Assembly: GCA_963841935.1 (NCBI GenBank)
Contig: CAWJEP010000005.1
Span: 69,845 to 133,844 of the forward strand
Length of the DNA: 64,000 nt
Direction of reading: 5' to 3'
Source: an uncultured bacterium
GTDB taxonomy: Bacteria; Patescibacteriota; Minisyncoccia; Phycocordibacterales; UBA6065
This document shows positions 1 through 60,000 of this stretch, one piece after another. The first letter of the stretch is position 1. Every line of letters starts with the position of its first letter. The notes under the pieces are model-generated. The model was given only the letters and a program-made list of their open reading frames with translations, made no database searches and was not told the DNA's origin. The translations under genes and the position numbers were made by a program.

Positions 1-351
1 TCCTGCGCGATTGGAATAATCAATTCGGTCATTCCCGTCATCGTGGCCATTACCGTGCTCTACATCATCTGGGGCGCGTTCAATCTGACAAAGTCCGAAG
101 GCGAAGACCGCAAGAAGTGGGGACAGGTAATTCTCTACGGCGTCGTTGGTTTGTTCATCATGGTGTCCATATATGGCATAGTCAACATTCTCGTCGGCAC
201 TTTCGGTTTCGGAGCAAATAGCATCACCACACCGAATATCTCTGTTGGCGTACAATCGCCAGTCAGTCCGGGAAATATTATAATGTCAACACCAACAAAT
301 TCGAGTCAGGCGCCTGTCACAAGTCAGAATAGTCCGTTCCAGGCGCCTTAA
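1..351 (+). CDS. T4SS pilin-like small membrane protein (TrbC/VirB2 family), 5' partial at window edge
   Basis: ORF runs off the window start. Hydrophobic helix, then charged KSEGEDRKK, then the ILYGVVGLFIMVSIYGIVNILVG helix. The same two-helix pattern occurs in the two downstream paralogs and matches the T4SS pilin-like (TrbC/VirB2) architecture that is common in CPR genomes. Confidence 0.5.
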   Translation, partial: SCAIGIINSVIPVIVAITVLYIIWGAFNLTKSEGEDRKKWGQVILYGVVGLFIMVSIYGIVNILVGTFGFGANSITTPNISVGVQSPVSPGNIIMSTPTNSSQAPVTSQNSPFQAP

Positions 352-453
352 GCCCTGTTGATAACCATTTTCTTTTGTTTTGGGGCGGGGTATAATCATT
401 ATTGTCCCATTGTAAGTCGCATTATTCGGCAATTTATCAGTTTGTTTATAAAT

Positions 454-828
454 ATGAAAAATATAGCTAGAAAAGTAGGTATAGGAGCGGCAATGTTTCT
501 TTTGCCGGCTGTGGCGTTCGCCCAGTACAGCATTCAAAGTTCGACCGGACTTTTTTCCGCCATTCAGTCCATTCTAAACGCCATTATCCCGATTATCATC
601 GCTTTGGCGGTCGTCTTCATTCTATGGGGAATCGTTCAGTCGTTCATAAAAGGTTCCGATGAAGAGCGAAAGGCCGGTCATATGAAGATTCTCTACGGCA
701 TTATCGGTCTCTTCGTCATGATTTCCATTTGGGGTCTCGTGAACATTCTCGTGGGTACGACCGGTCTCAACAATCAGGTTCCGACAAATCAGATTCCGAA
801 CGTAAATAACATTACCAACGGTAGCTAG
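454..828 (+). CDS. T4SS pilin-like small membrane protein (TrbC/VirB2 family), paralog 2
   Basis: ATG at 454 gives a signal peptide (MKNIARKVGIGAAMFLLPAVAFAQ). Then IQSILNAIIPIIIALAVVFILWGIV..KGSDEERKAGHMKILYGIIGLFVMISIWGLVNILVG, paralogous to the neighbours. The longer ORF from 358 is less likely. Confidence 0.5.
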   Translation: MKNIARKVGIGAAMFLLPAVAFAQYSIQSSTGLFSAIQSILNAIIPIIIALAVVFILWGIVQSFIKGSDEERKAGHMKILYGIIGLFVMISIWGLVNILVGTTGLNNQVPTNQIPNVNNITNGS

Positions 829-837
829 TAAAACCGG

Positions 838-1074
838 GTGTCTATAATCACGAAAGTCTTAACAATCGTCATCGATCCGGCGATTCAAGTCCTCTTGGCC
901 GTCGCTATCCTTTACTTTATCTGGGGAGTCTGGGTGTTTGTTAGAAATGCCGAGAGTCCGGACAAAAGGCAAGAAGGGGCGAGTCACATTCTCTACGCCA
1001 CAATCGGCATATTCGTGATGGTCAGCGTCTTTGGGATCATGGCACTCATTCAGAATTCTTTCGGTCTCCACTGA
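838..1074 (+). CDS. T4SS pilin-like small membrane protein (TrbC/VirB2 family), paralog 3
   Basis: GTG start. IDPAIQVLLAVAILYFIWGVWVFVRNAESPDKRQEGASHILYATIGIFVMVSVFGIMALI has the same motif arrangement as paralogs 1 and 2. Confidence 0.45.
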   Translation: MSIITKVLTIVIDPAIQVLLAVAILYFIWGVWVFVRNAESPDKRQEGASHILYATIGIFVMVSVFGIMALIQNSFGLH

Positions 1075-1145: not shown

Positions 1146-1850
1146 CTATCGTGGCCCCGTGGAAAAACTTACGGAGAGCGGGTGATTCACTAGGGATGTG
1201 TACTCGATTGATTGAGTATCCGGCCCAAGTCGCAAAGACTTCAGTTGTTGTCCTGTAGTCGGAATTACCTTCCAGCCGTTTTTCCTTACCGCCATTTGCG
1301 GGTCGTCATCTCCGACGTACACCCCGCTGAAGCAATAATTTTGAGGGATTATCTCGATCTTTGACCACTGTTCACCGCACGGAACGGCGACTGTCTCGAC
1401 CGAACTCCCTTTACCCTCGTCTAGTTTTCTCGTTGCCGCCGGTTTTTCCTTGATCGCTTCCGCAACGTGCGGGTTTACGACAGGCGAGCCGGTTATGATA
1501 ACGAGCGCCAAGAGCGTGGCATTTACCGCGATGGCATTCTTCGGTCTTGTGAGACAGAAAATGACACCGCAGACGATGACAACAACGACCCACGAATGGT
1601 CCGCGGTAAGAGCTTGCCCTATGGCGAAGCCCGAACCTAGGAACTGTATGGACCATATGAGCAGGACGAACGTAACGAGAGCCGTAACCTCGGCGCCGAG
1701 GTTTTTCAACCCAGCGCCGATTTTCTTTACTCCCGCAAGTCCATTGATGTTCGGGACGCTCAGTTTGCCCTCGAACCATGCCCACAGACCTATGGCGACA
1801 AGTAGAAACAGTCCGGCTATTCCAAGCAGAATGTAGTTTATATTTTGCAT
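1146..1850 (-). CDS. Membrane protein, possible NfeD-like partner of the adjacent SPFH protein
   Basis: 234 aa. N-terminal half has several TM helices and the C-terminal half is soluble and beta-rich. It sits immediately downstream of the SPFH/band-7 gene on the same strand, spaced like an operon. The NfeD assignment is inferred from context only. Confidence 0.35.
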   Translation of the reverse strand: MQNINYILLGIAGLFLLVAIGLWAWFEGKLSVPNINGLAGVKKIGAGLKNLGAEVTALVTFVLLIWSIQFLGSGFAIGQALTADHSWVVVVIVCGVIFCLTRPKNAIAVNATLLALVIITGSPVVNPHVAEAIKEKPAATRKLDEGKGSSVETVAVPCGEQWSKIEIIPQNYCFSGVYVGDDDPQMAVRKNGWKVIPTTGQQLKSLRLGPDTQSIEYTSLVNHPLSVSFSTGPR

Positions 1851-1860
1851 GTGGCCCTCC

Positions 1861-2937
1861 TTACTTGGAAACGGTCTCTATGGGGACAGAAATTAACGGT
1901 CCCTGACCACCGAAGGTTACGACTTTCGTCTGGGCCCCTTGGATGGCTTCAGACATTTTTAGAGCGGAATACATACTCGCGCCGTTTGGATTGGTTCCAA
2001 CCGCCGCAAACTCCGCGGTAATCGCCTCTCCCTCAGCCTTGCCTTTGAGTTTGATTACGTCCGCCTCGGCTGTTCCGATGGCGAGAATCTTTCCGGCCTC
2101 ACCCTTACCCTCCTCGATTGTCGCTTGGGCTTCAAGCTTGGCGACTTCGATTGCGGTGCTCGCTTTTAGGATTTCACCCGAAGACCCAGAGAGGTCGTAC
2201 GCGACAAACTCGGCGTGCACGATTTTCACCGCGCCAGCCAGAATTGACCGAACATCTACCCCGTTCGTCGTCAGGAACTTCGCGAGCGACCCGCTCGTTT
2301 TTTCGTCGTTGACCGCGGCACGGAATTGTTCGAGGTTTTTTTCTTTCGAATAGGTCTCGTCCAAACCGCTTATGGCCGATACAGCGAATGGCATCCAATT
2401 GCCCTTGAGTATATAGATAAGATACAACGGCTTGACTATCTCAAGGGTGACGTTCATCAATATCTGGAGTTGGAAGTTTCCGATAATCTTGATGTCGTTG
2501 GACAGAATTGCGTAAACGCTTTTCCAGTACGCGGAATCAACGGCGTTTTCACCCTTGTAAGCACGATGCGCCATTGTGTAGCGCACCTGTTTTGTCATGG
2601 GGTCTGTTGTTGCCTCCAGTTCATCGTATTCGAAATCGTACACGTGAACTCTCCTGAACAAGATACCTACCCACATGATGCCGAATCTCTCTGTAAACCA
2701 ACGGAGTTTTGGCTTGCCGTCGATTATCACGTCGTTCACGGGGTCGTATGTCTTGCCCGGAACGTTGATTAGCATTTCACAGAAGCTTTCGCCCCTGTCT
2801 ATCATCTTCATTTCCCCCGTGGGAACGAAGGTGAACATGATGTTGTTCTTTGCCAGGATATATACGATACCTAACAGCGACCCAGCAATCACGGCTAGTG
2901 AAAGTAGGCACACGAATACTAGGATTATTGCTTGCAT
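1861..2937 (-). CDS. SPFH/band 7 family protein (flotillin/YqiK-like)
   Basis: N-terminal TM helix (MQAIILVFVCLLSLAVIAGSLLGIVYIL), an SPFH core, and a C-terminal EA-rich repeat (AIEVAKLEAQATIEEGKGEAGKILAIGTAEADVIKLKGKAEGEAITAEFAA) typical of flotillin-like proteins. Start chosen at ATG 2937, the internal Met of the longer ORF. Confidence 0.7.
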   Translation of the reverse strand: MQAIILVFVCLLSLAVIAGSLLGIVYILAKNNIMFTFVPTGEMKMIDRGESFCEMLINVPGKTYDPVNDVIIDGKPKLRWFTERFGIMWVGILFRRVHVYDFEYDELEATTDPMTKQVRYTMAHRAYKGENAVDSAYWKSVYAILSNDIKIIGNFQLQILMNVTLEIVKPLYLIYILKGNWMPFAVSAISGLDETYSKEKNLEQFRAAVNDEKTSGSLAKFLTTNGVDVRSILAGAVKIVHAEFVAYDLSGSSGEILKASTAIEVAKLEAQATIEEGKGEAGKILAIGTAEADVIKLKGKAEGEAITAEFAAVGTNPNGASMYSALKMSEAIQGAQTKVVTFGGQGPLISVPIETVSK

Positions 2938-3045
2938 GTTAAAGACCCTTTTGTTTATTAATGCCAAGCGTAGTGCCGGCATTTCCCGCAAAACTCTATC
3001 ATACATATTATATGTATGTCAATGACACGGAAAAGTGGTTTTAGC

Positions 3046-6531: not shown

Positions 6532-7734
6532 ATGTTTCGAAAAAGAATATACGCGGATTACGCTTCGACGACGCCGCTGTCGAGTGAAGCCCGCCGCGCC
6601 ATGAGGAAAACCGAAAAACTCGGAAACCCGTCGGCTATTTATAAAGAAGGCGTCGAAGCGGAAAAATTTCTGGAAGCGGCCCGCGCGCTTTGCGCGCGGG
6701 CCCTCGAATCCCGTCCGGAAGAAATCTTTTTCACCTCCGGCGGCACGGAATCGAACAATCTCGGCGTTGCCGGAGTCATTGAGGCAAGACGTGCCGACGG
6801 GATTCCATATGAAAAAATTCACGTCGTCACGACGCCGATTGAGCATTCTTCCGTTCTCGAATGCGTCAGGGAATACGAAAAACGCGGCGTAAAAATTTCC
6901 TTTGCCGACATAAATAAAGAAGGAATCGTTTCCGTCGAATCAATAAAGAAAAAAATAAATCCCGATACGGTTTTGGTTTCCGTAATGTACGCGAACAACG
7001 AAATAGGCACGATACAGCCGATTCACGAAATCGGAGAAATGATTCGCGAAATGAAAAAAGAAAAGGCAAGCGTGTATCCTTTTTTCCACACTGACGCCTG
7101 TCAAGCACCACTTTTTCTTTCTCTTCATCGGGAAAATCTGCGCGCCGACCTTATGTCTCTCGACGGCCACAAAATATACGGGCCACGCGGCGCGGGAATC
7201 CTTTTCGTGAGAAACGGCGTGAAAATCTCGCCTATTCTTTTTGGCGGCGGACAGGAAAGGGGACTGCGTTCAACCACGGAAAATATTTCCGGCATCGCGG
7301 GAATGGCGGCCGCCCTTCGACAAGCTCAGGGCGGCCGCGAGAAATTTTCCGCGCGAATGAAACTTTTGCGCGACTTTTTCGTATTAGAAACGGAGGAGCA
7401 TTTTCCCGAAGCGGTTCTAAACGGCTCTCTCGAAAAAAGATTGCCGAATAACGCCAATTTTTCTTTCCCGTGGATTTCCGACGCGGAGTTCGCCGTGCTA
7501 ACGCTTGACGCCAAAGGTATCGCGTGCTCGACAAAAAGCTCGTGCCTGAAAGGCGAAGATGAATCATACGTCGTTTCCGCGCTTGAACCGGGAAATAAGT
7601 GGCGCTCGCGGAGCACTTTGCGTTTTACCTTTGGCGTCAAAAACACCAAGCGTGATATAATAAAAATCGTAGAAGCTCTGGAGAATATCAAGAAAATTCT
7701 GGCTAAAAACTCACCCCTTGCTAAAAATCAATAA
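6532..7734 (+). CDS. Cysteine desulfurase (NifS/IscS family, class V aminotransferase)
   Basis: YADYASTTP near the N-terminus, TSGGTESNN, the PLP-lysine motif SLDGHKIYGPRGAGILFV, and an active-site Cys region CSTKSSC near the C-terminus. Confidence 0.8.
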   Translation: MFRKRIYADYASTTPLSSEARRAMRKTEKLGNPSAIYKEGVEAEKFLEAARALCARALESRPEEIFFTSGGTESNNLGVAGVIEARRADGIPYEKIHVVTTPIEHSSVLECVREYEKRGVKISFADINKEGIVSVESIKKKINPDTVLVSVMYANNEIGTIQPIHEIGEMIREMKKEKASVYPFFHTDACQAPLFLSLHRENLRADLMSLDGHKIYGPRGAGILFVRNGVKISPILFGGGQERGLRSTTENISGIAGMAAALRQAQGGREKFSARMKLLRDFFVLETEEHFPEAVLNGSLEKRLPNNANFSFPWISDAEFAVLTLDAKGIACSTKSSCLKGEDESYVVSALEPGNKWRSRSTLRFTFGVKNTKRDIIKIVEALENIKKILAKNSPLAKNQ

Positions 7735-7753
7735 ATGTTTTACACTCTAAACC

Positions 7754-8581
7754 ATGGATCTCAATAATCTAAACAAACATCAGGTCATTTTGGTGGCGCT
7801 TTTGGTCTCTTTCGTCGCGTCCACGGCCACGGGCATCATTACCGTGTCTTTGATGAATCAAGCTCCGCCGCCGGTGACGCAGACCATAGAGCACGTCATT
7901 CAGACTACTGTCGAAAAAGTCGCGCCCGCCACACAGGGCGCGGCAGTGGCTCAGGAGACCGTAATCGTACAAGAAGACACCGCGACGATCGCCGCCATAG
8001 CCAAAGCGTCGCAATCAATCGTCCGCGTTTATTCTTCCGACCCCTACGGCAACACGCATTTCGTCGGTTTCGGCGTCATAGCCACGAGCTCCGCCTCTGC
8101 GACGACTACTTTCGTCGTCGGTAAAATAACCGTAGCCGGGGAGACAAGCTTCTCCGGACATCTCGAAGGCGGCAACACAGTGAACCTTTCCCTTCTTTCA
8201 ACCGACCCTTCGTCGGGACTTTCCATTTTCTCCATGGCGCAGAGCTCTGATTTGACGCAAGCCAAAGCTTTCACCGGCGCGACCTTCACGAACTCCGACG
8301 GCGTCCAGCTCGGTCAGACGGTCGTGGCGATAGGCGGACAGACCAATCCTTTCATTTCCACCGGCATCATCTCCAGTCTTTCGACGATAACCGTTTCCGC
8401 CACGTCTTCCGACGAAACGGTAACAAATATTTTCTCCAATATTTCCGACCAGGAACTCATGACTAACGCCATTCTTGTCGATCTCTCCGGCAACATTGTC
8501 GGTTTCAAGACGGGCTCAACAGTTTCCGACGGATTTGTTCCGGCAAAATACGCGGTGGCTCTTGTGAACCAAGGCCTATAG
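7754..8581 (+). CDS. Membrane-anchored trypsin-like (HtrA/DegP-like) domain protein with degenerate catalytic motifs
   Basis: N-terminal TM helix. LGQTVVAIGGQTNPFISTGIISSL resembles the DegP segment VGDxVxAIGNPFGLGQTVTSGIxSAL. The expected GNSGG catalytic-serine motif is replaced by LMTNAILVDLSGNIVG. Confidence 0.4.
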   Translation: MDLNNLNKHQVILVALLVSFVASTATGIITVSLMNQAPPPVTQTIEHVIQTTVEKVAPATQGAAVAQETVIVQEDTATIAAIAKASQSIVRVYSSDPYGNTHFVGFGVIATSSASATTTFVVGKITVAGETSFSGHLEGGNTVNLSLLSTDPSSGLSIFSMAQSSDLTQAKAFTGATFTNSDGVQLGQTVVAIGGQTNPFISTGIISSLSTITVSATSSDETVTNIFSNISDQELMTNAILVDLSGNIVGFKTGSTVSDGFVPAKYAVALVNQGL

Positions 8582-8601
8582 AAAGTTTCGTATAAAAACA
8601 T

Positions 8602-11295
8602 ATGCCTCCATTTGGACACTTCACGACAAAAGCAAAAGAAGCCATCCGCCGCGCGCACGAAGTAGCCGTCGAGCGCGGCCAATCCCACGTCTCGCCTTTG
8701 CATTTACTCTCGGCGCTTTTGCTTCAGGAAGAAAGCATCGTAATGTCCATTCTCGACCGGCTCGAAGTGGACACGATGCTTCTCACGGATTCCATTTTGG
8801 AATCTCTCGAAGGCACGCCGTCGGCTTCGACGATTTCTCCGTCGTATCAGCTCTACCTGACGCCCGACCTCGCGCAGACGCTCGAACATTCGGCAAAAGT
8901 CGCCTCGTCCCTCAAAGACGAATTTATTTCGACGGAACACTTGCTCATATCGCTTCTTGAGATTCCGAGCGCGGCGCGCGACATTCTCGCGCGTTTCAAA
9001 ATAGACCGTGGCGCCGTCGTGCGCGTTCTTTCGGAAATCCGCTCGCAGAAAAATACCGGTCAAACGGAGACCAAGAAATATAAATATCTTTCAAAATACA
9101 CCAAGAGTTTGACTAAAATGGCGCACGACAACAAACTCGACCCCGTCATCGGCCGTGACCTTGAAATCAGCCGCATCATCCAGATTCTTTCGCGCCGGAC
9201 GAAAAACAATCCGATTCTCATCGGCGAAGCGGGCGTCGGCAAGACCGCGATAGTGGAGGGCTTGGCTTTGCGCATGGCCTCAGGCGACGTTCCGGAATCT
9301 CTCAAAGACAAAGAGCTCATAATGCTTGACCTCGGACTTCTCATCGCCGGCACGAAATACCGCGGAGAATTTGAAGAGCGTCTCAAAAACATAATGAAAG
9401 AAATCGAGCGCGCCGAAGGCCAAATTATTCTTTTCATAGATGAAATCCACACCATCGTCGGCGCGGGCGCCGCCGAGGGCTCGCTCGACGCATCGAATAT
9501 GCTCAAGCCGGCGCTCGCTCGCGGCGAGCTTCGCGCCATCGGAGCGACGACAATAAAGGAGTATCAAAAACACATAGAAAAAGACCCGGCGCTCACTCGC
9601 CGCTTTCAGCCGGTTTTCGTCGCCGAGCCGTCCATTGAAGACGCTATTGCCATTCTCCGCGGTCTCAAGGAAAAATATGAGCTTTATCACGGCGTCCGCA
9701 TCACGGACGACGCAATCCTCGCCGCCGTAAATCTTTCCAGCCGCTACATCACCGACAGATTTTTGCCCGACAAGACTGTTGACCTCATTGACGAAGCGGC
9801 GAGCGCGCTAAAAATCTCCCTCGAATCAAAGCCGCCGATACTCGAAGAGACTCACAGGAAAATAATGCGTCTTGAGATAGAGCGCGAGGCATTGAAAAAA
9901 GAAGCCGAGACGGATGCGGGCAAGACCGCTAAGGCGCGCATCAAAGAAATCGAAAAAGAAATCGCCGAACACAAGGAAAAGACGAGCGAGCTAGAACTCA
10001 AATGGAAAAACGAAAAAGAACTTTTAGTGGATATCAAAGGCATAAAGAAAGAGCTTGAAAGTTTGCGCAGGGAAGCCGAGCAAGCCGAAATCCGCGCCGA
10101 TTTGTCCAAAGCCGCCGAGATTCGCTACGGCAAGATTCCCGCGCTCGAAAAAGATTTGGAAACCAAAGCCAAAAGAATGAAACGCCTTCAAACTTCGCGT
10201 CGCATTTTGAAAGAAGAAATCACGGAAGAAGACATCGCGACCGTGGTGTCTCGTTGGACGGGCGTGCCGGTATCGAGAATGCTCGAAGAGGAAGCGGCCA
10301 AGCTCGTCAGAATGGAAGCGGAATTAAACAAACGCGTCATCGGTCAGGACGACGCGGTAAAGAAAATCGCCGACACCGTCCGCAGGGCTCGCGCCGGCAT
10401 CGCCGACCCCAATCGTCCTATCGGCTCTTTTCTTTTTCTCGGTCCGACCGGTGTCGGCAAGACGGAACTGACCAAGGCGCTGGCCGAGTTTATGTTCGAC
10501 GACGACAAAGCGCTCATTCGCGTCGATATGTCGGAATTTATGGAACGCCACAGCGTGAGCAAACTCATCGGCGCGCCACCGGGATATGTCGGTCACGAAG
10601 AAGGCGGCTCACTCACCGAGACCGTGCGTCATCGCCCTTACGCCGTGATTCTTTTCGACGAAATAGAGAAAGCCCATCCGGAAGTTTTCAACATCTTGCT
10701 TCAAGTTCTAGACAATGGCCGTCTTACCGACGCCAAAGGCCGCGTTGTTAATTTCAAAAACACCATTATCGTTTTGACTTCAAACATCGGCGCGCAATAC
10801 ATAGACAAGATGCAGTCCATCGGATTTGCCGCGCAGTCCGGTGAGAAAGCCAAATACGAAGACGTCAAGGCCAAAGTCACGGAGTCTTTGCGCGATTATT
10901 TCCGACCGGAATTTCTAAACCGTCTCGACCACATCATCATCTTTGACGTGCTCTCGCCTGAAGCCGTGAAAAATATCGTCGCGATGCAAGTCGGACTCGT
11001 CATCAAACGTCTCGCGGAGAAAGGCATCGCTCTAGACCTTACCCCGGAAGTTTACGATTACATCACCAAAGAAGGTTACAATCCGCAATACGGCGCTCGA
11101 CCGCTCAAACGCCTCATTCAAGACAAGATTCTCACGCCGGTCGCCACATTTATGCTTACCCAAGGTCTCAACCGCGGCGGCACCATTTCCGTCTCGATGA
11201 AAGGCAATGAATTTGTTTTCGACAACAAAAAGGGAAAGAAATCTCCGATAAAAACTCACGCCGTCAAAAAGGAAGAAGAGAAAGTAGAAAAGTAG
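8602..11295 (+). CDS. clpB: ATP-dependent chaperone ClpB (two AAA+ modules with middle coiled coil)
   Basis: Clp N-domain. Walker A motifs [15 protein letters not shown] and [16 protein letters not shown] long coiled-coil middle domain ([23 protein letters not shown]...). 897 aa. Confidence 0.9.
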
Positions 11296-45930: not shown

Positions 45931-46249
45931 TGCTGGGCGGAAAGTGGATAACCCCTCGCTTGCTTTTTAGAAGTAATTTCATTAAAATAGAAGAGTCTTT
46001 GAGCCCTTCAAAGAATAGATACTTGATTTATAGAAAAGAAATGCCCCCAAAGGCGGGGGCATTAGCTTGATTGCTCTGGCAACATTTCTAACAAAAACGT
46101 GGCGAGGTTCAGTTTCAAAGCTGACAGAAAAACTCGCAATGGTGTCTTAAGGCCTTAAGACTTCGAAAAGAATTGAATTCTACGAGCGACTTGCTGGTGC
46201 CTCTGTATTTGTGGGTATTTGCACCAATAAATTTAGGATATCATATTTT

Positions 46250-47731
46250 ATGACAATCTCCAAAACAGACTATCTCTTGTGGCGAGAGTGCAAGAAAAAT
46301 ACGTGGATAAAACTTCACAAACCGGAAATATTTTATGCGGTGGAGCTTTCCGATTTTGAAAAATCTATTATTGAAAGGGGGAATGAAGTTGAAGCAGAAG
46401 CACAGAAACGTTTTCCGACAGGAGTTTTGATTGAAGGTCGAGACGAACAGGCGCAAAAGCTCACGCAGAAATATATCGCCGACAAAGAGCGGACTCTTTT
46501 TCAGCCTGTGTTTCTCAAAGACGGTTTTCTCGCGGCACTCGATATTTTGCAATACGACAAAGAGACTGGGAAATATTCGATATTTGAAATCAAAGCATCG
46601 AATGATGTGGACGAGAAAACCCATCTTTATGACTTGGCTTTCCAAGTTGCTCTTCTCAAGAAATGCGGAATCAAAATCGATATCGCGAACATCATTCATC
46701 TCAACTCAAAATATGTGAGAAACGGCGAGCTAGATATCGAGAAACTTTTCACCATAAATAATCAGACGAAAGAAGTCGAAGAACTTCTGCCGAAAGTCGA
46801 ATTCGAAATGGAAGCGGCGAAAGAATATCTTTCGCAGGAAAAAGAACCTTCAGGATATTGTGATTGTGTCTACAAAGGCCGCTCGGCGCACTGCGCCACA
46901 TTTTCATATTCCAATCCGACCGTTCCTGAATACGGCATTCATGATATCGCTCGCATCGGTATGAGTAAGAAAAAACTCCAAGAACTCGCCGACAGAAGCA
47001 TTTTCAAAATTGAAGACCTGCCCGACAACATTGAACTTTCGGAAATCCAAAAGAATCAAGTCGATGCTTATATTTTCGACAGAGTTTCTATAAAGAAACT
47101 GGAGATTGGTCAGGAATTAAAAAATTTGGTTTTCCCTCTGTATTTTCTTGATTACGAAACATATCCGTCGGCCATTCCTCGGTTTGACGGCTTCTCGCCA
47201 TATCAGCAGATTCCTTTTCAATATTCGCTTCATATCGTCGAATCACCGGACGCGGAGCCGATTCACAAAGAGTTTCTTCATACGGGAAGTGACAATCCGA
47301 GCGAACATTTCGCCAAATCGCTTCAAAAACACATAGGTCCAAAAGGAAACATAATCGTCTGGAACAAAAAGTTCGAATGCAAGATAAACAACGAACTCGC
47401 CAAAAGGCTTCCGGAAACCAAATCTTCTATCGATGATTTAAACGCTCGCGTCTACGACCTTATGGATATTTTTTCCAAACAATTTTATGTTCACAAGGAT
47501 TTCAAAGGTTCGACATCGATAAAATATGTTTTGCCGGTTCTCGCACCGGAACTTTCGTACAAGAAACTAGAAATCCAAGAAGGCGGCACCGCGTCGCAAA
47601 AATGGAATGAGATTACGACTTGTGAAATGGATCAAAAAGTAAAAAAAGAGATCGCGGAAAATTTAAAAGAATATTGCAAACTAGACACATACGCGATGTA
47701 CGCCATTTGGAAACATCTTTTTGAGTTATAA
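46250..47731 (+). CDS. DUF2779-family protein (Cas4/RecB-like PD-(D/E)xK nuclease N-domain plus RNase H-like exonuclease C-domain)
   Basis: A Cys cluster (CDCVYKGRSAHC) typical of Cas4/RecB-like nucleases. The characteristic LYFLDYETYPSAIP (FLDFET) motif of DUF2779. Start at ATG 46250. Confidence 0.55.
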   Translation: MTISKTDYLLWRECKKNTWIKLHKPEIFYAVELSDFEKSIIERGNEVEAEAQKRFPTGVLIEGRDEQAQKLTQKYIADKERTLFQPVFLKDGFLAALDILQYDKETGKYSIFEIKASNDVDEKTHLYDLAFQVALLKKCGIKIDIANIIHLNSKYVRNGELDIEKLFTINNQTKEVEELLPKVEFEMEAAKEYLSQEKEPSGYCDCVYKGRSAHCATFSYSNPTVPEYGIHDIARIGMSKKKLQELADRSIFKIEDLPDNIELSEIQKNQVDAYIFDRVSIKKLEIGQELKNLVFPLYFLDYETYPSAIPRFDGFSPYQQIPFQYSLHIVESPDAEPIHKEFLHTGSDNPSEHFAKSLQKHIGPKGNIIVWNKKFECKINNELAKRLPETKSSIDDLNARVYDLMDIFSKQFYVHKDFKGSTSIKYVLPVLAPELSYKKLEIQEGGTASQKWNEITTCEMDQKVKKEIAENLKEYCKLDTYAMYAIWKHLFEL

Positions 47732-47739
47732 TTTACTTT

Positions 47740-48456
47740 ATGCAACTCATTTTTTTAGACACGGAGACGACGGGCAACGACGCGGCAAAAGACCGGCTTT
47801 GTCAGATCTGCTATAGGATTGGCACAGAAACGAAAACGGAATATTTCAAACCGCCAGTGCCAGTATCGGTCAAAGCGATGAGCATCACGCATATCACGAA
47901 CAAAATGCTTGCGGACAAAGAGCCATTTATCGCAAGTAAGATGTATAAAGAACTTGAGAAACTTCTTCCGAAAAATATTTTGGTCGCTCACAACGCCAAA
48001 TTCGATATAGCAATGCTTTTCGCCGAAGGAATAAAGGTCAAAGATTTCATCTGCACATTGCGTGTTGCCAGAAATCTAGATACTGACAATGTAATACCCG
48101 AATACAATCTGCAGTATTTGAGATATTATCTAGATCTTGAAGTGGCAGGAACGCCACACGACGCGGAATCGGATGTCAACGTCCTTGAAGCCGTTTTCAA
48201 CAAATTGCTTGAAAAAATTATGGAGAAAATTCCAAATCGTGAAAAAGCCATCGAGGAAATGGTGAAAATATCAAGCAATCCGGTGTTATTCAAAAAAATA
48301 AATTTCGGTAAATACAAAGACAAAGACGTTGAAGAAGTTTTAAAAGCCGATCGTCGCTATCTCGAATGGTTACTTGCCGAAAAACGCAAAACTCCGGAAC
48401 TCGAAGAAGATTGGATTTATACGTTGGAAAATTATCTGGGACGGAAGACGGTCTAA
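47740..48456 (+). CDS. DnaQ-like 3'-5' exonuclease (DEDDh, ExoX-like) with C-terminal DUF3820-like KGK domain
   Basis: Exo I motif FLDTETTG, Exo II motif VAHNAKFD, Exo III motif PHDAESD. The C-terminal NFGKYKDKDVEEVLKADRRYLEWLL resembles the exodeoxyribonuclease X C-terminal/DUF3820 domain. Confidence 0.65.
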   Translation: MQLIFLDTETTGNDAAKDRLCQICYRIGTETKTEYFKPPVPVSVKAMSITHITNKMLADKEPFIASKMYKELEKLLPKNILVAHNAKFDIAMLFAEGIKVKDFICTLRVARNLDTDNVIPEYNLQYLRYYLDLEVAGTPHDAESDVNVLEAVFNKLLEKIMEKIPNREKAIEEMVKISSNPVLFKKINFGKYKDKDVEEVLKADRRYLEWLLAEKRKTPELEEDWIYTLENYLGRKTV

Positions 48457-48458
48457 AT

Positions 48459-49256
48459 TTATTTAACCAAATTTTTCCAATATCTTTCTAAATCTTCCGA
48501 AACGCTTTCGTTATTGGTAGATCCTTGTGGTTGAGCAACGACAAAATCTTTTTTCCATACCTCATATCCTTTCGGAAATGTCTTGCTAAAGATGTCCGAA
48601 TATCGCTCAAATCTTTCCTTAAGACTTAGACTCTCGTTATACCTTTCAAACAGCACATAATACGCTAAATCATTTTCTTTAAACCATTTAACTGCATTTT
48701 TCTCTCCCGTCCATGGAATATTACGTAATGAGAAATAGCAGCATATTAGATTACTCATACTATATAAAAGTCGAATTTCTAACGCTTCATGATAAATCGG
48801 GTCTTTCGAATCAAAATATCTTTTGTTTGCTACGTAGTTATAGTTTGCATTTTGCCAGAAGTTATATTTTTCTGAGAATGGCACATTAATGACCATGTCT
48901 TTGAAACCTCTTTCAATAAGGGCCGATGTTTTTCCTGATTTATCAAATTTTATATCAGCTTTTTGTAACCATACAGGTAAAGTTGAATTACCGTTAGCCA
49001 CAAATTCCACATGGTTATCAAGAAAGTTTCTGACCTTATCTAAATCAAGATGGTCGAAGAAATATATATCAGCGAAAGTTTCATCTATATACGTAAAAAC
49101 AGACTGTATAGTCTTATATTTTGCTTTAAGAATAACTATAAGATCAATATCACTGGATGATCCAGCCTTTCTTGTTCCGTGAGAACCTGTAAGAAAAACA
49201 CAGTCTACATTTTCATTCTTCTTTAGTTTCTCTATGACCTGATCTAGAGAAAGCAT
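48459..49256 (-). CDS. Pol-beta-superfamily nucleotidyltransferase (ANT/Lnu-like) in a low-GC patch
   Basis: N-terminal NTase signature FLTGSHGTRKAGSSSDIDLIVIL (GS...G.....SDxDL). At 265 aa it is about the size of aminoglycoside or lincosamide nucleotidyltransferases. The gene is visibly more AT-rich than its flanks. Confidence 0.5.
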   Translation of the reverse strand: MLSLDQVIEKLKKNENVDCVFLTGSHGTRKAGSSSDIDLIVILKAKYKTIQSVFTYIDETFADIYFFDHLDLDKVRNFLDNHVEFVANGNSTLPVWLQKADIKFDKSGKTSALIERGFKDMVINVPFSEKYNFWQNANYNYVANKRYFDSKDPIYHEALEIRLLYSMSNLICCYFSLRNIPWTGEKNAVKWFKENDLAYYVLFERYNESLSLKERFERYSDIFSKTFPKGYEVWKKDFVVAQPQGSTNNESVSEDLERYWKNLVK

Positions 49257-49260
49257 AATT

Positions 49261-49953
49261 TTAGGAGTTAAGGTTGCTTAAGATTATTTGAATATAATTA
49301 TTGACTGCGTCATAAGGAATCGCTCCGTCGGTGTTGGCGATGTTGCCTTTTGGCGTGACGAAAACGGTGTAAGGGGTGCCCTGACCGCCGGCGTTTATGG
49401 CGTCTTGGTAATCGGCTTGGACTTTTGCCGCTTCTTTACCGCTTGAGAGACATTCATTGAAAGCCGTAACGTTTAGACCGACATCGCTCGCGATTTTCGG
49501 AAGTTCCGCCGGGTCGAGTCCGTCATTGGATGGCGTGACGGAAAATATTTCATCGAGATAATTCCAGAAAGTGTTATTTCCGCCAAGGTCGGCGGCACAC
49601 TCCAATGCCTCTGCTTCGTTTGTCGATTTCGAGTGAAGCGGAAACGAACGATAAACCCAGGCGACTTCGCTCGTTGAAGCGTATTCGCTGTAAATATCTT
49701 TGAGAGTCTGGTGGAATTGCTTGCAATAAGGGCACTCGGTGTCGGAATAATCTATTATTTTTATCGGAGCGTTTATGCTGCCGAGAATATGGTCCTCCGC
49801 CGTTACTGGTCGCACCGTGATACCGGCGTCAGGCGTCGCGGTTTGTGCCGGAATGACGGTAGTCGAAGATTTTCCTCCCACAAAATACACGGCAATGGCG
49901 ATAAAAACTCCCGCGACGACGATGGCTATGGGCACGAGGAGGTTCTTATTCAT
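49261..49953 (-). CDS. DsbA-like thiol:disulfide oxidoreductase (signal-anchored thioredoxin fold)
   Basis: N-terminal TM helix (LLVPIAIVVAGVFIAIAVYFV) and the CxxC active site DTECPYCKQFHQTL. Start at ATG 49953. Confidence 0.7.
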   Translation of the reverse strand: MNKNLLVPIAIVVAGVFIAIAVYFVGGKSSTTVIPAQTATPDAGITVRPVTAEDHILGSINAPIKIIDYSDTECPYCKQFHQTLKDIYSEYASTSEVAWVYRSFPLHSKSTNEAEALECAADLGGNNTFWNYLDEIFSVTPSNDGLDPAELPKIASDVGLNVTAFNECLSSGKEAAKVQADYQDAINAGGQGTPYTVFVTPKGNIANTDGAIPYDAVNNYIQIILSNLNS

Positions 49954-49960
49954 ATTTACA

Positions 49961-50539
49961 TTATAACCCAAGAGAGAAGTTCATCGAACTGTTACCGACT
50001 TTTTCCCAATGTGAAGTGTCTAGTTTGATTTCCAGAATTTTTCCGCCGAAATCTTTGTATTTTAGCGAGCCGTTTTTCAAAGCGTATTCGTAAAGCTCCT
50101 TTGTGATTTTCACGTCGTCAATACAGTAATCGATGATTTTCTGAATTTCGCCTTGTTTCCACCAAGTGATGGCTTCCAGACCGTGACCACTTTTGTTTTT
50201 TCCTAGCGTGGCTTCGGTGACATTGTCGAGCTTTACGCGCCGCCCGAGCGATTTGTGTATTTCTTTCAAAAGGTCCACGCTTTTTATTTTGCCGAGGTCA
50301 CCGTGATAATACTTGTTCAAAAGAGGAATATCGAAATGGTCGCTGTTGAATCCTATCAAGATATCCGTGTGTTCGAGAATCGGCCAGAGGTTCTTGAAAT
50401 CTTTTTCAAGATAACTCGTGTAAGAATCCGTCTCCGAGTCGTGAATGCACACGACGGAAATATCGAGAGCCGACGGGTCGCTCGAGCCGACGTCTTGAAA
50501 AAGATTTTTTGTTTCCACGTCGAAGACGATTTTTCTCAT
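49961..50539 (-). CDS. DEDDy-type 3'-5' exonuclease domain protein
   Basis: VFDVETKN (Exo I), GFNSDHFDIPLL (Exo II) and YCIDDVKITKELY (Y-x3-D Exo III). Confidence 0.55.
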   Translation of the reverse strand: MRKIVFDVETKNLFQDVGSSDPSALDISVVCIHDSETDSYTSYLEKDFKNLWPILEHTDILIGFNSDHFDIPLLNKYYHGDLGKIKSVDLLKEIHKSLGRRVKLDNVTEATLGKNKSGHGLEAITWWKQGEIQKIIDYCIDDVKITKELYEYALKNGSLKYKDFGGKILEIKLDTSHWEKVGNSSMNFSLGL

Positions 50540-54005: not shown

Positions 54006-57000
54006 ATGGATGACACTGTTCTGATCGAAGGGAAAACACATATTTCATCGAGACGCGCCGCGAAATTAAGCGGTTACACTCAAGATTACGTCGGCCAGCT
54101 TGTTCGCGGCAAAAGAGTCACGGCCAAAAAAATTGGACGCTCGTGGTATATACAAGAAATTTCGTTCCGAGATTATATTTCCGGTAATCCTGTATTAATA
54201 AAAAAAGAATTCTCGAATGACCGAGAAAGGTTAATAAATCGCGAAAAAGTAGAGAAAGAAAAGGTCAGTGGTTACCATCCTGAAAAAATCAGACACGGAA
54301 TACTTCACAGATTTCAGAAATTGACAGCGTTTACCCTCTCCCTCCTCATCGTCTCCTCAGCCATTGCCTTCGCTAATACGGTCAGTCCTCAAGAAGTGGC
54401 GGGATATGTTTCCTCCACAACGGATAAAGGATTGGCCATGGTTTCCTCGGCTGAAGCACTTCTTCGTCAAAGCGCGGACTTGGCCAATTTATACGGCAAA
54501 GAAAACACGGCGCTCGTGGCCGCCTCGGGCGAAAATCCTCTTTTCATCGGAGCCCAAACGGTGGCCCTCGGCGTCTACGAAACATTCCATCCGGCGATTC
54601 AAAACGCCGAATATACTTTGGCGGCGCTCTTTGCCCCGAGAGTTTCTAACATCGCCGTCAGTAACGTTTCGGAATCTCCGATAACCATTAATCTCGCTTC
54701 GAGCACGACGCCAATGACAAGTTCTTCAAGCGCTCTCGCCGTTTATACTCCGCCCGTCACCACGGCAAATCCCGTCATATCTTCGCCAAACAACGTCTAT
54801 TACCAGACTCTCGGCGAGACGCAAGACGAAGTCCAAAGCCAAATAGCCGCCGCCATAGAGCCCCTGATTTTCCAGATTAACGCTTTGGGATACAGAGGAG
54901 GAACGACGCAGTCAAACGTCCAAAACGTCTACGACAACATCGATTTCAGCCGCATTAACGGAGCAAACATCGACAAAAGCTTCGTGAGCGATTCGGCCTT
55001 TACCGGCGGAACCATTAGCGGCGCGAGTATTACCAACTCATCGATTGACGTTCTAAACGTCGGAAACGGTCTCTCGAACATCGCCGGCGATTTGACCGTT
55101 TCCGGCACGACAACAGTCAACAATCTCTTTGCCGCTAATTCTTTGACGAGTAATTCAACCACGACCTCTGCCACCTCGACTAATCTCTACGCCGCGAACG
55201 TCGTGTTGGCAAACGCCACGACGACAAATCTCTTTACCGACTCACTCAACGCTTTGTCGGAGACAATCGATAGCATCACTTCAAATGTCGCGACCATATT
55301 CGGCCTGACCGCGACGAATGCCACGACGACCTCCGCCACGACGACGAATGAATTCGACGCAAACCTCGTCGCTTCAAACGCCACGACGACGGGGAACGCG
55401 TACGTCGGCGGCAATCTCACGGTGGGCGGCAATTCAGTTACCCTGGGCAACTCGAGCGCCAACACGCTCGTCGTCAATTCCGCCGTCGGCTCAAACCTCA
55501 TTCCGAACCAAAACGCCACGTACGACATCGGCTCTCCGGCCTATTACTGGAACAACGAATACGTCGCCACCCTAAACGTCAACAATCTCTCGGCCGCTTC
55601 TTCGACCATCGGCGGAACGACAGACAGCAATTTCACCATTAACTCCGGCAACGGCACTCCCGACACCGAGAGTATGTCACTCACATTCTTCCGAGGCACC
55701 GTGGTGCCAAACGCCGTCATCGCTTGGAACTCTACGACCAAACGTTTCGAATTAAACCAAAGCGCCTTCATTCAAAACGGCTCTACAAACCTTCTTTCCT
55801 CGCCTACGCTTTCGCTCGAGGGTCAAGCGGGACAAACCGGAGACATTTTCGATATCGCGAGCTCAACCGGACAAAACTATTTCAATATCTCCGCCACTGG
55901 CACGACAAACACTTTGGGACTAACTTTCACGAGCGCAACGGGAACCTCCGCCACCACGACCAACTTCTACGCTTCACTTTTGAATTCCATAACGGGAACG
56001 ATTACCAACTTCACTTCAAACTTGGCTACGATTTTCGGTCTGACCGCGACGAATGCCACGACAACGAACGCCACGACGACAAACCTAGTGGTCTTCAATT
56101 CTCCAGTCGCTCCGGCTTTCATCGCCACCTCGACTACGGCTGTGTCTTCGCTTCAACAACTTCTCGTTAACGCAAGTACCACTCTCCAAAACTTCACGTT
56201 CCAAAATGCCACGGGAACAAACGCCACGACGAGCACTCTTTACGTTTCCGGTCAGTCAATCCTTGCGGCGACGGGAGGGGATGTGGGAATCGGACTTACG
56301 AACCCTTCTTATCCGCTCGATATTTATAACGCGGCTAGTGGTGCTTTGAGATTGAATGATTCGAACAATGCAGCCATTATTTCTACCGTAAAAGAATTGG
56401 CCGCGACAAATTTAAATTTTACTGTCAGCGGAACCAATGCTATGACAATAAGATATAACGGAAACATCGGTATCGGCACGACGACACCTTGGGCGTTCTT
56501 CTCTATAAACCCGAACGCCAACTCGCAAGGTCCGCTATTCGTTGTCGGCTCATCGACCGCCACACAATTTATCATAAGCAACACAGGTTTGGTCGGCATC
56601 GGCACGACTTCACCTCTTAGCAAGTTTGATATTGTCAGCAACTACAACGATACCACCGATACTTTCCGAATCGATGCTCCAGACCCGGGAGATTATCATT
56701 TGACTATAAATCCGTATGTGGTCGGCAACGGCAACGTCGGATACAAATTTAAAACCACCGATACCGCGGTCACGGTCACGGCCATGGCTATCACGGGTAC
56801 TGGAAACATAGGTATCGGCACGACGACGCCGGACGCCACGCTCTCCTTAAACGGAAGCGGCGGCTCATACATAGACTTTGGAAATAGCGGGCCAGTCAAG
56901 GCGTACATCGGAACATCGGGAATATTCGGCGCGGCAAGCACGGATGATTTGCGCGTTCGTTCCGATGGTCCAAACATTGATTTTGGTTTTTCTGGACAAA

Positions 57001-60000
57001 TAACTGATGTCATAAATAGTTCCGGTTCAATGGGTATCGGCACGACAACGCCGAATGCTAAACTGGATGTTCTTGGAACCACTGGTAGTCCTGCTACAAG
57101 CGGTTACACCCAAAATGGCATATTCCAGATTGGAGCTTCTATTGGAGGCAATGGTTTGGACTTTGGAGTCTTGGCCGGAGCGCCATACTCGACCTGGATG
57201 CAGTCAGGTTATTTGGGCAACTATTCTCTCGCGGCTTACTATCCAATATCTCTGAACCCTCTTGGCGGCAATGTCGGTATCGGGACGACTAATCCGACGG
57301 CGAAACTTGAAATCGCCGGCACTGGCAGCACACTTGTCCAAGCGAGCACGACCGATGTGACAACTTCTTCCGCTTCGGGATTTCAATCTCTAAGTGACGC
57401 GAGCATACTGACCATGCAAAATCACGGAAGCGCGAGAGTCGTGTCGCGTTATGGACTCACGCTTGGAGGTTGGACAGAGATAACGGCACAGAACAATTTC
57501 GGAACGAACAACGGCATTGTTATCGGAACTCAAAGCGCGGTACCCATCGTCTTCGGTACGAACAATACCGAATATATGCGCATTACCGGCGCCGGCAACG
57601 TCGGCATCGGGACGCCGGGGCCTGGTTACAAGTTAGATGTTCAAGGCAATGCTGGTATTGTAACTGTAAACACTAATGGCTCCGTGTCTGCAGGTGGACA
57701 ATATGTCTCTGGTATTGGAAGTTTTGCATCCGCAAGCGATGGAACTGATGTTGTTTTACAAGCTGGAGCTACGACACTTATGACTTTGAAGTCCGGCGGC
57801 AACGTCGGCATCGGGACGGCGAGTCCTCAAGTCAGGACTCATATTGTCGGTCCGTCGTTAACTGAAAGTTCCGAGACTTCGTATGCCTTATGGGTGGCCA
57901 ACACCAACGCTCCGACGAAAGCGTTGATTATGGGTTACGACACTACCGCCGATATCGCCGTCATCAATGCCGTGCAGCAAGGGGTAACTTGGAAGAACAT
58001 CGCGATGCAAACCAATGGCGGCAACGTCGGCATCGGAACTACGAACCCGGGAGCGACCTTGGATGTGAACGGGTATGGACGCTTCGTCAGCCCCAACGGA
58101 GGATCAACCGGCGCCGTTATAATTAGAGACGCCAGCGGGAACCCTAATGCCGCGTATTTGCAGTTCACCAATAATGCAGACTCCGTGGAGTACGCAGACA
58201 TTCGTGGGCTCGCCGCCGGAGGAATGGCTCTAAACGGCGGTAACGTCGGCATCGGGACGACGAATCCTTCCCAAAGATTGTCGGTGAACCAATCACTCGC
58301 TATCACGAATGTGGGCGGCGGCGGTGCCCAGTATCTGCTCATGGGCAATCAAGATTCTGCTGGCGTCAATAACCCCGTAGTACTGCAAGCAGCTAACGGT
58401 GACTTGAGCATCGGTCACGGGTCCAGCTGGACGGACCCGGTGGGGGGCACCTTCTCATCAAATGTAACATTCAAGAACGGTGGCAACGTCGGCATCGGGA
58501 CGACGAATCCAGCGTATAAGTTGGACGTGAATGGTACAGCAAACATTGGTGGTAATTTTACTGTCGGTGGCAACTTGACTATAAACGGAAGTTACAATAC
58601 AAGTTTGTATAGCCTTACAACAAGCAGAAGCGGAGGAGTGAATTATGCTTATCCTGATGTTGCGGGGGCGTCGGTTGGTTTAGTGCTTGGCGGAACCAGT
58701 AATGGTAATGGAACAATTGCTTTGAATACCACTGGTAGCAACACAACACCGACGATGTATCTTTCAACAACCGGCAACGTCGGCATCGGGACGACGGCGC
58801 CGGAGTCAAATTTGACTGTACAAAATACTAATGCAGGTGGTCGAGGAGGTGAAATAAGTATCACAAATCTCTCCAATACGATCAATTCAGAAGCGGCGTT
58901 AAATTTTGGTGTTGATAACTCCAGCTACAATGCCGACTCCGGTAACGGTCAGATTAAAGTTGTTAATATGGATGGAGCGACAATGAAATCGGATATGGTA
59001 TTTTCAACTTGGAACGGTTCTGCTTTTGGCGAGAGAATGAGGATACAATCAGGTGGCAACGTCGGCATCGGACGACAGTCCCGCTCAATAAATTGGATAT
59101 TGCAGGGGCTTCTGCGATTGGCAGTGATTATGCAGGTGCTTACACGGCTCCAACTAACGGTGCAATAATAGAAGGCAACGTCGGCATCGGGACGGCGAGT
59201 CCAGGGCAAAAACTTGATGTAAACGGTAATATCAATTTTGCGGCTGCGGGATATATTACCAACAACAATAGCTCGTACTTTGGCGCAGGTAACGTACTGG
59301 TGTCAGGCGCGGCATCAACGGATACAGGTATTTTGACAAGCGGGAATATTGTTTTTGGCACCAATGCCGGCGCGGGGAATACTGAGCGCATGCGCATCAC
59401 TTCGACCGGCAACGTCGGCATCGGGACGACGAATCCGCAGTCGCCACTTCAACTGGGTTCAGTGTTTGCATTACAACAAGATGTAAATAGTGGTTATATT
59501 GGCGCAAACTTTGGCGGAATAATAATTAGTTATATCAAGAGCCAATATGCCAACCAAATACAGTTTGACTCTGCACTGGGTAATATCAATTTTAAAGTAG
59601 CACCATCCGGAACTGCTGGTAACCCTATCACTTACACAACAGCAATGGCGATAAATTCTTCCGGCGAGGTCGGTATCGGAACAACGAATCAAAACAATCC
59701 ATTGGAAGTCGACAGTTCGGCGGGCGCTGAGACCGGAATCAATATATTCAATTCAAATATAAACGGCGGGGCGCAGCTTAGTCTTCACAGTATCTCAACC
59801 GGCACCGGTCCTTTTGGCGGCGCTACAATTTCGTATTCAAACGTGGCCGGGCCATACGCAAACGCCCTGGTCATAATGAATACATACTCCGCTCCATTAA
59901 TACTTGGTACCAACAACGCCAATAGATTCGAGATAGACAATAACGGCGACGTGGGTGTTGCAATACTATCCGCGGGTACATCCAATTCTCTCTGCTACAA

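Follow-up and report, generated by a model that had tools for sequence, protein, structure and literature searches.

The three small genes at the start of a 64,000-nucleotide stretch of an uncultured Patescibacteria genome (contig CAWJEP010000005.1; this whole stretch is referred to below as the window) form the 3' half of an operon-like array of six genes of the T4SS_pilin family (PF18895; T4SS stands for type IV secretion system), located in a housekeeping region of a Paceibacteria chromosome. The interpretation preferred here, with a probability of about 0.6, is that the array specifies specialised VirB2-like subunits of a single heteromeric, T4SS-dependent structure of the surface or envelope, and that these subunits are encoded apart from the machinery that would handle them. 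Specialisation is suggested by paralogue classes that separated anciently and have kept their order in the array.

The three genes, designated P1, P2 and P3, occupy positions 1-351, 454-828 and 838-1074 of the forward strand and are the fourth, fifth and sixth of the array. The 5' end of P1 lies beyond the window edge; its full-length product of 130 aa is read from an identical Logan contig (L001, 493-885). P2 (124 aa) starts at an ATG within a mechanically delimited open reading frame (ORF) that begins with TTG at 358; P3, the terminal gene (78 aa), starts at a GTG. Hydropathy identifies two hydrophobic segments in each protein and, in P2, an extra N-terminal signal-like segment. The latter is a predicted Sec-type signal peptide (MKNIARKVGIGAAMFLLPAVAFA before Q; approximately residues 1-23, with cleavage at AFA/Q and QYS as the next residues); a helix-loop-helix hairpin comes next, and the protein ends in a short N/Q/T/P tail. 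P1 has no signal peptide: an N-terminal pair of cysteines (C4 and C16) precedes two hydrophobic helices and a tail rich in S, T, P, N and Q. P3, a member of the terminal-type orthogroup, also lacks a signal peptide and consists of little more than a two-helix hairpin. The loop motifs of the three (SEGEDRKKW, GSDEERKAG and ESPDKRQEG) are each followed by a version of ILYG(V/I/A)(V/I/T)G(L/I)F(I/V)MVS(I/V)(Y/W/F)G. An earlier note on this DNA had pointed to three adjacent small genes with these motifs; genes and motifs are exactly where it placed them, on one strand, and the signal-peptide and membrane-helix prediction that it proposed yields the pattern just described.

The trio are true paralogues, far beyond chance: pairwise identities are 33-44% and local alignment scores are 121-190, compared with 29-34 (± 5-6) for 1000 composition-preserving shuffles, so that z = 16-27 (the highest value being that of P1 and P2, which are 44% identical). 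One might nevertheless consider these ORFs to be chance open frames or decayed remnants, seeing that they are short, that P3 has a GTG start and that P2 and P3 lack a clear Shine-Dalgarno sequence. That proposition is hardly credible, and is refuted on four separate counts: selection (ratios of nonsynonymous to synonymous substitution, dN/dS, of 0.075-0.19), the existence of 151 database homologues with PF18895 calls, a gene order kept in 41 related loci, and identical, independently made gene calls in public assemblies.

PF18895 is the top Pfam match of P1, P2 and P3. P2 scores 50.6 bits (E 2e-13) against a gathering cut-off of 26.6 bits; P3, at 25.9 bits, falls just below it, and so do P1 (22.7 bits truncated, 23.0 bits full-length) and P0, the next copy upstream (24.1 bits). 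The sub-threshold P1 and P3 are still to be counted in the family, since they are unambiguous paralogues of P2. The top NCBIfam match of all three proteins is NF045849 (Mbov_0395 pilin-like conjugal transfer), at 26.6-30.6 bits (the maximum being that of P3) and below the cut-off of 40. In a close relative, represented by a 70.9-kb contig (L043/L046), array copies 1 and 2 score 35.7 and 36.6 bits on PF18895; precomputed Pfam calls place this family on the L043 orthologues, on that of P1 only faintly. Nearly all of the 151 homologues retrieved with P2 carry PF18895, and the few that have names are called "pilin" or "hypothetical protein" and come from metagenome-assembled genomes (MAGs) of Paceibacterota or Taylorbacteria. 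A wider comparative set was assembled by scanning with P2, one genome per GTDB species, which gave 41 loci (cited by L number where they must be told apart), all of them in Patescibacteria MAGs: 143 of their 146 array members match PF18895 and 38 of the 146 also match PF04956, the TrbC/VirB2 family (E <= 0.01, best 7.7e-8; cut-off 27.9 bits), the copies in second position doing so at 21.8-24.1 bits over nearly the whole profile. Such matches lend support to relatedness of the array at the superfamily level, not to PF04956 membership of the window copies. The assignment of the trio to a TrbC/VirB2/T4SS-pilin family expanded in bacteria of the candidate phyla radiation (CPR), as made in the earlier note, thus survives the Pfam search that was to check it: P2 passes, the relatives' arrays match almost without exception, and the relatives are all Patescibacteria (CPR).

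A helix-loop-helix with a short polar loop is present in each protein by hydropathy and, for P2, also in an AlphaFold2 (AF2) model. The model, built on a 77-sequence alignment (predicted local distance difference test, pLDDT, 69.5), has helices at 2-21 (the signal), 30-65 and 69-102, with a three-residue loop and a disordered tail. The loop is the sole charged stretch of the hairpin proteins, so that the positive-inside convention and the analogy with VirB2 would place it on the cytoplasmic side, with the two protein ends outside. A phage (holin) origin was considered and rejected: there are zero PHROG matches.

The complete array can be pieced together from L001 and L043; JGI metagenomes, scanned for an exact 42-mer, gave no match. 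L001 (1374 bp) reaches 534 bp to the left of the window and adds the whole of P1, P0 (108 aa, 50% identical to P1) and the C-terminal 53 aa of another copy. L043, whose P2 is 90% identical to that of the window, shares with the window the downstream order membrane protein, SPFH-like protein, response regulator, RbfA, IF-2, DUF4446 protein, aminotransferase and ClpB. Its array consists of six consecutive PF18895 genes of 166, 122, 108, 116, 124 and 78 aa (the fourth being 116 aa long in L043 and 130 aa in the window and L001), separated by gaps of -4, 1, 1, 105 and 9 nt. Gene 1 begins 1 nt after a gene for a 435-aa protein resembling solute-binding proteins (SBP-like; PF13416/PF01547), which in turn begins 2 nt after a gene for an S-adenosylmethionine (SAM)-dependent methyltransferase. 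It follows that the trio are genes 4-6 of a sextet: the three genes of the earlier note are real, but as a "trio" they are a product of the window edge. Copies 1, 2 and 5 have predicted cleavable signal peptides; in copies 3, 4 and 6, helix 1 would serve as a signal anchor.

Some copies also carry conserved N-terminal cysteine pairs: C5/C16 in P0 and C4/C16 in P1 (L001 165-885), and two cysteines in a PCD…PCTYN context in the first array gene of L043 (8350-8850), with similar spacing in L005, L015 and L034. The N-terminal segments in question are predicted to be extracytoplasmic, and the cysteines suggest that some subunits bear disulfide-stabilised heads.

The arrangement is general. Arrays are tandem and on one strand in 41 of 41 related loci, with 2-7 genes (median 5) in the 33 loci that are bounded on both sides. 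The surroundings are also kept: MBL-fold (metallo-β-lactamase-fold) protein, small protein, GyrA, methyltransferase and SBP-like protein upstream and, in convergent orientation downstream, a membrane protein, an SPFH-like protein and, further on, IF-2.

Arrays of this kind have been described before. In Candidatus Southlakia epibionticum ML1, the six tandem PF18895 genes SEML1_0014-0019 are each essential by transposon sequencing (Tn-seq) (Wang et al. 2023, PMC10633639). When 3,035 Patescibacteria genomes were searched for matches to PF18895 and PF04956, 441 arrays of 2-11 pilin genes came to light, with a mean identity of 25% and a maximum of 54%, and pilin genes lay near virB4 in 1,135 of 1,948 assemblies (Quinonero-Coronel et al. 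2025, PMC12102498). A 2025 review (PMC12857230) finds the six structurally conserved, sequence-divergent VirB2-like pilins remarkable and offers, as speculation, the idea of a pilus-like conduit. The window locus, with six consecutive PF18895-family genes and relatives that are all Patescibacteria MAGs, is one of these Patescibacteria VirB2 arrays: like them it lies in this phylum and consists of tandem, same-strand PF18895 genes (six of them, as in S. epibionticum), published genes being of about 80-185 aa, with identities as low (24-50% here) and with some copies likewise weakly matching TrbC/VirB2. Its kind is therefore already published, and what the window adds is a Paceibacteria member unlinked from virB4. 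A fixed class order and a separate promoter-like region for the last two genes are not mentioned in the parts of PMC10633639 and PMC12102498 drawn on here; within the same bounds, class-ordered organisation and tight linkage to an SBP-like gene are the only aspects that go beyond the literature found.

The class order emerges when all array members are clustered by normalised bit score: there are three deep classes, and each keeps its array position. Class I, which has a signal peptide and an N-terminal segment with two cysteines, opens the array, next to the SBP-like gene, in 24 of 30 loci; class II, the most TrbC-like, stands second in 26 of 30; class III comprises all the remaining copies. 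The terminal type (short, without a signal peptide, and represented in the window by P3) is last in 35 of the 39 loci whose 3' end is complete. In the window's clade the canonical order comprises five genes, P0 and P1 being a clade-specific duplication of one subtype. Identity is 24-50% within the array and 77-90% between window and L043 orthologues, and dN/dS for the latter comparison is 0.19 (P1), 0.075 (P2) and 0.13 (P3), set against 0.03-0.18 for the neighbouring genes (0.07-0.12 for RbfA, IF-2, DUF4446 and the aminotransferase). In these alignments only the C-terminal tails, which are predicted to be extracellular, vary freely: that of P1, 47 aa long in the window, corresponds in L043 to an unrelated sequence of 33 aa.

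If the copies are interchangeable variants of one major pilin, serving antigenic or host-range variation as has been proposed for Bartonella and Anaplasma, why do they keep their places? Some features of the array do agree with such a role: divergence among the copies is high, the C-terminal tails differ in length and sequence among close relatives, and one lineage-specific duplication (P0/P1) has produced two genes of the same subtype. Host-range or antigenic versatility is also one of the possibilities raised by the authors of the genome survey (PMC12102498). These features have to be reconciled, however, with ancient classes that hold their positions across Taylor-, Zambryski- and Nomurabacteria-type genomes, with purifying selection on each orthologue comparable to that on IF-2 and RbfA, with systematic differences between copies (signal peptide, cysteine-containing N-terminal segment, length), and with the individual essentiality of each of the six genes in S. 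epibionticum (PMC10633639). Recent lineage-specific duplication followed by diversifying evolution is not seen among these loci, where orthogroups are conserved in position and P0/P1 is the sole clade-specific duplication. The array instead bears the signature of old, individually constrained subunits, not of fast-evolving, interchangeable antigens. The earlier note had offered "antigenic or functional variation" of a surface filament; because the classes are ancient, stay in place and evolve under purifying selection like that of their housekeeping neighbours, the antigenic half of that suggestion is disfavoured, and functional specialisation fits better. Spare variants are, in short, an improbable explanation of this locus.

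The case for a T4SS-dependent structure must also be set against a series of observations that weigh on the other side. The window copies do not reach the PF04956 cut-off: P2 scores 14.1 bits (E 0.056), and P1 and P3 are unmatched. A sequence-profile search of the PDB matched no pilin, and hhalign against Agrobacterium tumefaciens VirB2 was not significant (the AFA/Q of P2 aligns with the AAA/Q of VirB2 in that comparison). Foldseek with the P2 model returned nothing at E < 0.5, a Pyrobaculum conjugative pilin being eighth with a template-modelling (TM) score of 0.40; a fold search with a plain helical hairpin is non-discriminating. No filament of any PF18895 protein is reported in the literature covered. 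The Saccharibacteria array lies inside a T4SS cluster, beside VirB6-like and PrgI genes (PMC10633639), whereas that of the window, in Paceibacteria, lies between the SBP-like/methyltransferase pair and a convergent SPFH-like/IF-2 block.

The array has no linked T4SS genes in its readable flanks. The 63 kb that follow the trio in the window yielded no VirB4, VirB6 or VirD4 (Pfam was run on large or otherwise unassigned ORFs, and the N-termini of the rest were inspected), and a general array HMM (hidden Markov model) found no further PF18895 gene elsewhere in the window. T4SS genes are absent also from the 17.5 kb upstream of the array in L046, the closest relative, which has the same synteny; that stretch encodes the SBP-like protein, the methyltransferase, GyrA, S1, Pth, signal peptidase I, YbeY, FtsA, FtsZ, a TrxR-like protein, a trypsin-like protease and PLD. 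None lies within 10 kb on either side in the 41 related loci, where the large ORFs that might have been VirB4 are actually GyrA, RNR, DnaE, ThrRS, SecA, PheT, PPDK and a helicase. With housekeeping genes flanking the array in the closest relative, the 41 loci and the window, the expectation of the earlier note that the rest of the apparatus would lie just upstream is not supported.

Does this argue against a T4SS, or only against a nearby one? The genomes of L030 and L042, the two relatives included in the published survey, are scored there as VirB4-positive (Table S1 of PMC12102498), yet neither has VirB4 within 10 kb of its array, so in such genomes the T4SS sits elsewhere, and dependence of the SBP-linked array on a T4SS acting in trans would be compatible with what is seen. 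Two Paceibacteria entries of the same survey, GCA_000505065.1 and GCA_000989175.1, each show one solitary PF18895 gene, which is separated from virB4 by one other gene (the order being VirB6, VirB3, TrsD, VirB4, intervening gene, pilin; Table S3 of PMC12102498). The SBP-linked array is accordingly a second type of PF18895 locus in Paceibacteria, and this too must be counted with the points against.

The company that the array does keep suggests another role for it: the hairpin proteins might form a T4SS-independent membrane complex or channel that partners a membrane-anchored SBP-like protein, for example in the uptake of host compounds, in which case the Pfam name would reflect distant common ancestry only. 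An SBP-like gene is present in 35 of 43 sources (the 41 related loci, L001 and the window) and directly upstream of the array in 30 loci, at a distance of 1 nt in L043, L048 and L049, with the methyltransferase gene 2-7 nt further upstream. The want of any linked T4SS gene, and the separate single PF18895 gene at virB4 in Paceibacteria genomes (PMC12102498), are also what this proposal would have. As it stands in L043/L046, however, the operon has neither an ABC permease nor an ATPase gene. We know of no transporter whose membrane component is an array of two-helix proteins, and adjacency is weak functional evidence in the tiny, tightly packed genomes of CPR bacteria. Moreover, the homologous six-gene array of Saccharibacteria resides in a T4SS cluster that, as described in PMC10633639, has no SBP gene. 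A role in partnership with the SBP-like protein, but without a T4SS, is judged to be unlikely.

A more adventurous proposal, and a distinctly improbable one, would make the SBP-like gene and the five to seven class-ordered PF18895 genes a self-contained, conserved Paceibacteria module, distinct from the single pilin linked to virB4, for a heteromeric, envelope-spanning conduit of fixed stoichiometry that imports a host-derived molecule: the membrane-anchored binding protein would capture the molecule and a tube of hairpin proteins would pass it inward. If true, this would be a nutrient-uptake device made from the parts of a conjugative pilus, and the first obligately heteropolymeric VirB2-type assembly.

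For the preferred interpretation, that of specialised subunits of one T4SS-dependent structure, the following course of events can be envisaged. Sec or YidC would insert each product, a small helix-loop-helix protein, into the membrane. A T4SS of the VirB4/VirB6/VirB3 type, encoded elsewhere in the genome, would extract the subunits from the membrane and polymerise them, the several copies serving as major, minor, base or tip subunits of a heteromeric filament or an envelope-spanning stalk. The assembled structure would then serve contact or exchange with the host cell.

Known systems resemble this one in part. The VirB2/TrbC major pilins of Gram-negative T4SS (PF04956), among them A. tumefaciens VirB2 of the T-pilus, are likewise small, with two hydrophobic helices and a short loop, and share with some of the array copies a Sec signal peptide; they differ in that VirB2 is virB-linked and is a single major pilin, compared with six divergent, unlinked copies here, three of which have no signal peptide, in a bacterium that is assumed to be monoderm, without an outer membrane. 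The virB2 arrays of Bartonella and Anaplasma phagocytophilum (cited in PMC12102498) are also tandem amplifications of the VirB2 family in host-dependent bacteria, but they are read as antigenic or host-adaptation variants, whereas the classes found here are ancient, position-keeping and under purifying selection. Mbov_0395/MMCAP2_0565 of the Mycoplasma integrative and conjugative elements (ICEs; NF045849) is a small two-helix protein that belongs to the T4SS of a wall-less or monoderm bacterium, and nearly the whole of its 80-position model is matched; it is a single-copy gene of a mobile element, while the window array is chromosomal and lies among housekeeping genes.

The 105-nt gap between the fourth and fifth genes of L043 has its counterpart in a non-coding spacer that precedes P2 on the same strand (352-453). 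It holds TGTTGATAA at 356-364, GGGGTATAAT at 387-396, with a -10-like TATAAT at 391-396, and a leader of approximately 55 nt. Conservation of the spacer is striking: 93 of 102 nt (91%) are identical in L043, compared with 62-68% of the third codon positions of P2 and P3. The same arrangement of TGTTGATAA and GGGGTATAAT lies upstream of the P2-type gene in L002, L043-46 and L048; in L048 a GC-rich hairpin stands just before the promoter-like motif. A structured RNA was considered and rejected: RNAalifold gives -5 kcal/mol with no covariation, and Rfam finds only tRNAs in the window. A promoter or operator acting at the DNA level is preferred for want of support for RNA structure, and the spacer is probably an internal one, to judge from its sequence, giving P2 and P3 their own expression; separate expression would fit abundant subunits. 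At its other end the array is closed by a bidirectional intrinsic terminator (1102-1134), a 15-bp GC-rich hairpin with T-runs on both strands, which also closes the convergent gene at 1146-1850.

By what means the ultrasmall CPR bacteria acquire their necessities from host cells is still an open question, and the T4SS with its unusual pilin array is one of a small number of systems whose essentiality has been shown in the only species amenable to genetics. In Paceibacteria, comparable arrays are found apart from the secretion machinery and in operon-like association with a binding-protein-like gene. Ancient classes that keep their positions under purifying selection favour distinct parts over spare variants, and the notion of subunits as parts is one that can be tested in the Saccharibacteria model system.

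Some further features of these loci are recorded here. In L031, a gene for a 697-aa protein (6838-8931) stands just before the array; its extreme C-terminus (residues 618-682) matches PF18895 at 31 bits, which makes the protein a fusion of a large N-terminal region with a pilin-type hairpin. The gyrA gene is called as four fragments in L043 (3042-5541, the same as L046 6007-8506) and is intact, with 822-825 aa, in other loci; the fragmentation is probably an assembly frameshift error rather than biology. The two convergent genes beside the array of the window, encode a 234-aa membrane protein (1146-1850, reverse strand) and a 381-aa SPFH-like protein with no Pfam match (1861-3006, reverse strand). 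They are only approximately 30% identical to their L043 counterparts (154 and 286 aa), the flanking genes being 84-97% identical, and on this comparison the pair looks like a hypervariable two-gene cassette.

Far from the array, towards the other end of the window, a 1720-aa protein with no Pfam match (54006-59168) and a protein of at least 840 aa, incomplete at the window end (61479-63998), have a similar HTH_17-like N-terminus (…ISS/AxxAAKxxGYxQDYVxxLxRxKR…); the gene between them, at 60103-60978, specifies 291 aa and includes a Peptidase_S74 (endosialidase chaperone) domain. The segment at 46000-50000, with a GC content of 0.40 compared with approximately 0.49, contains the gene for a DUF2779 protein (46211-47731) together with several small ones, and may be an acquired island.

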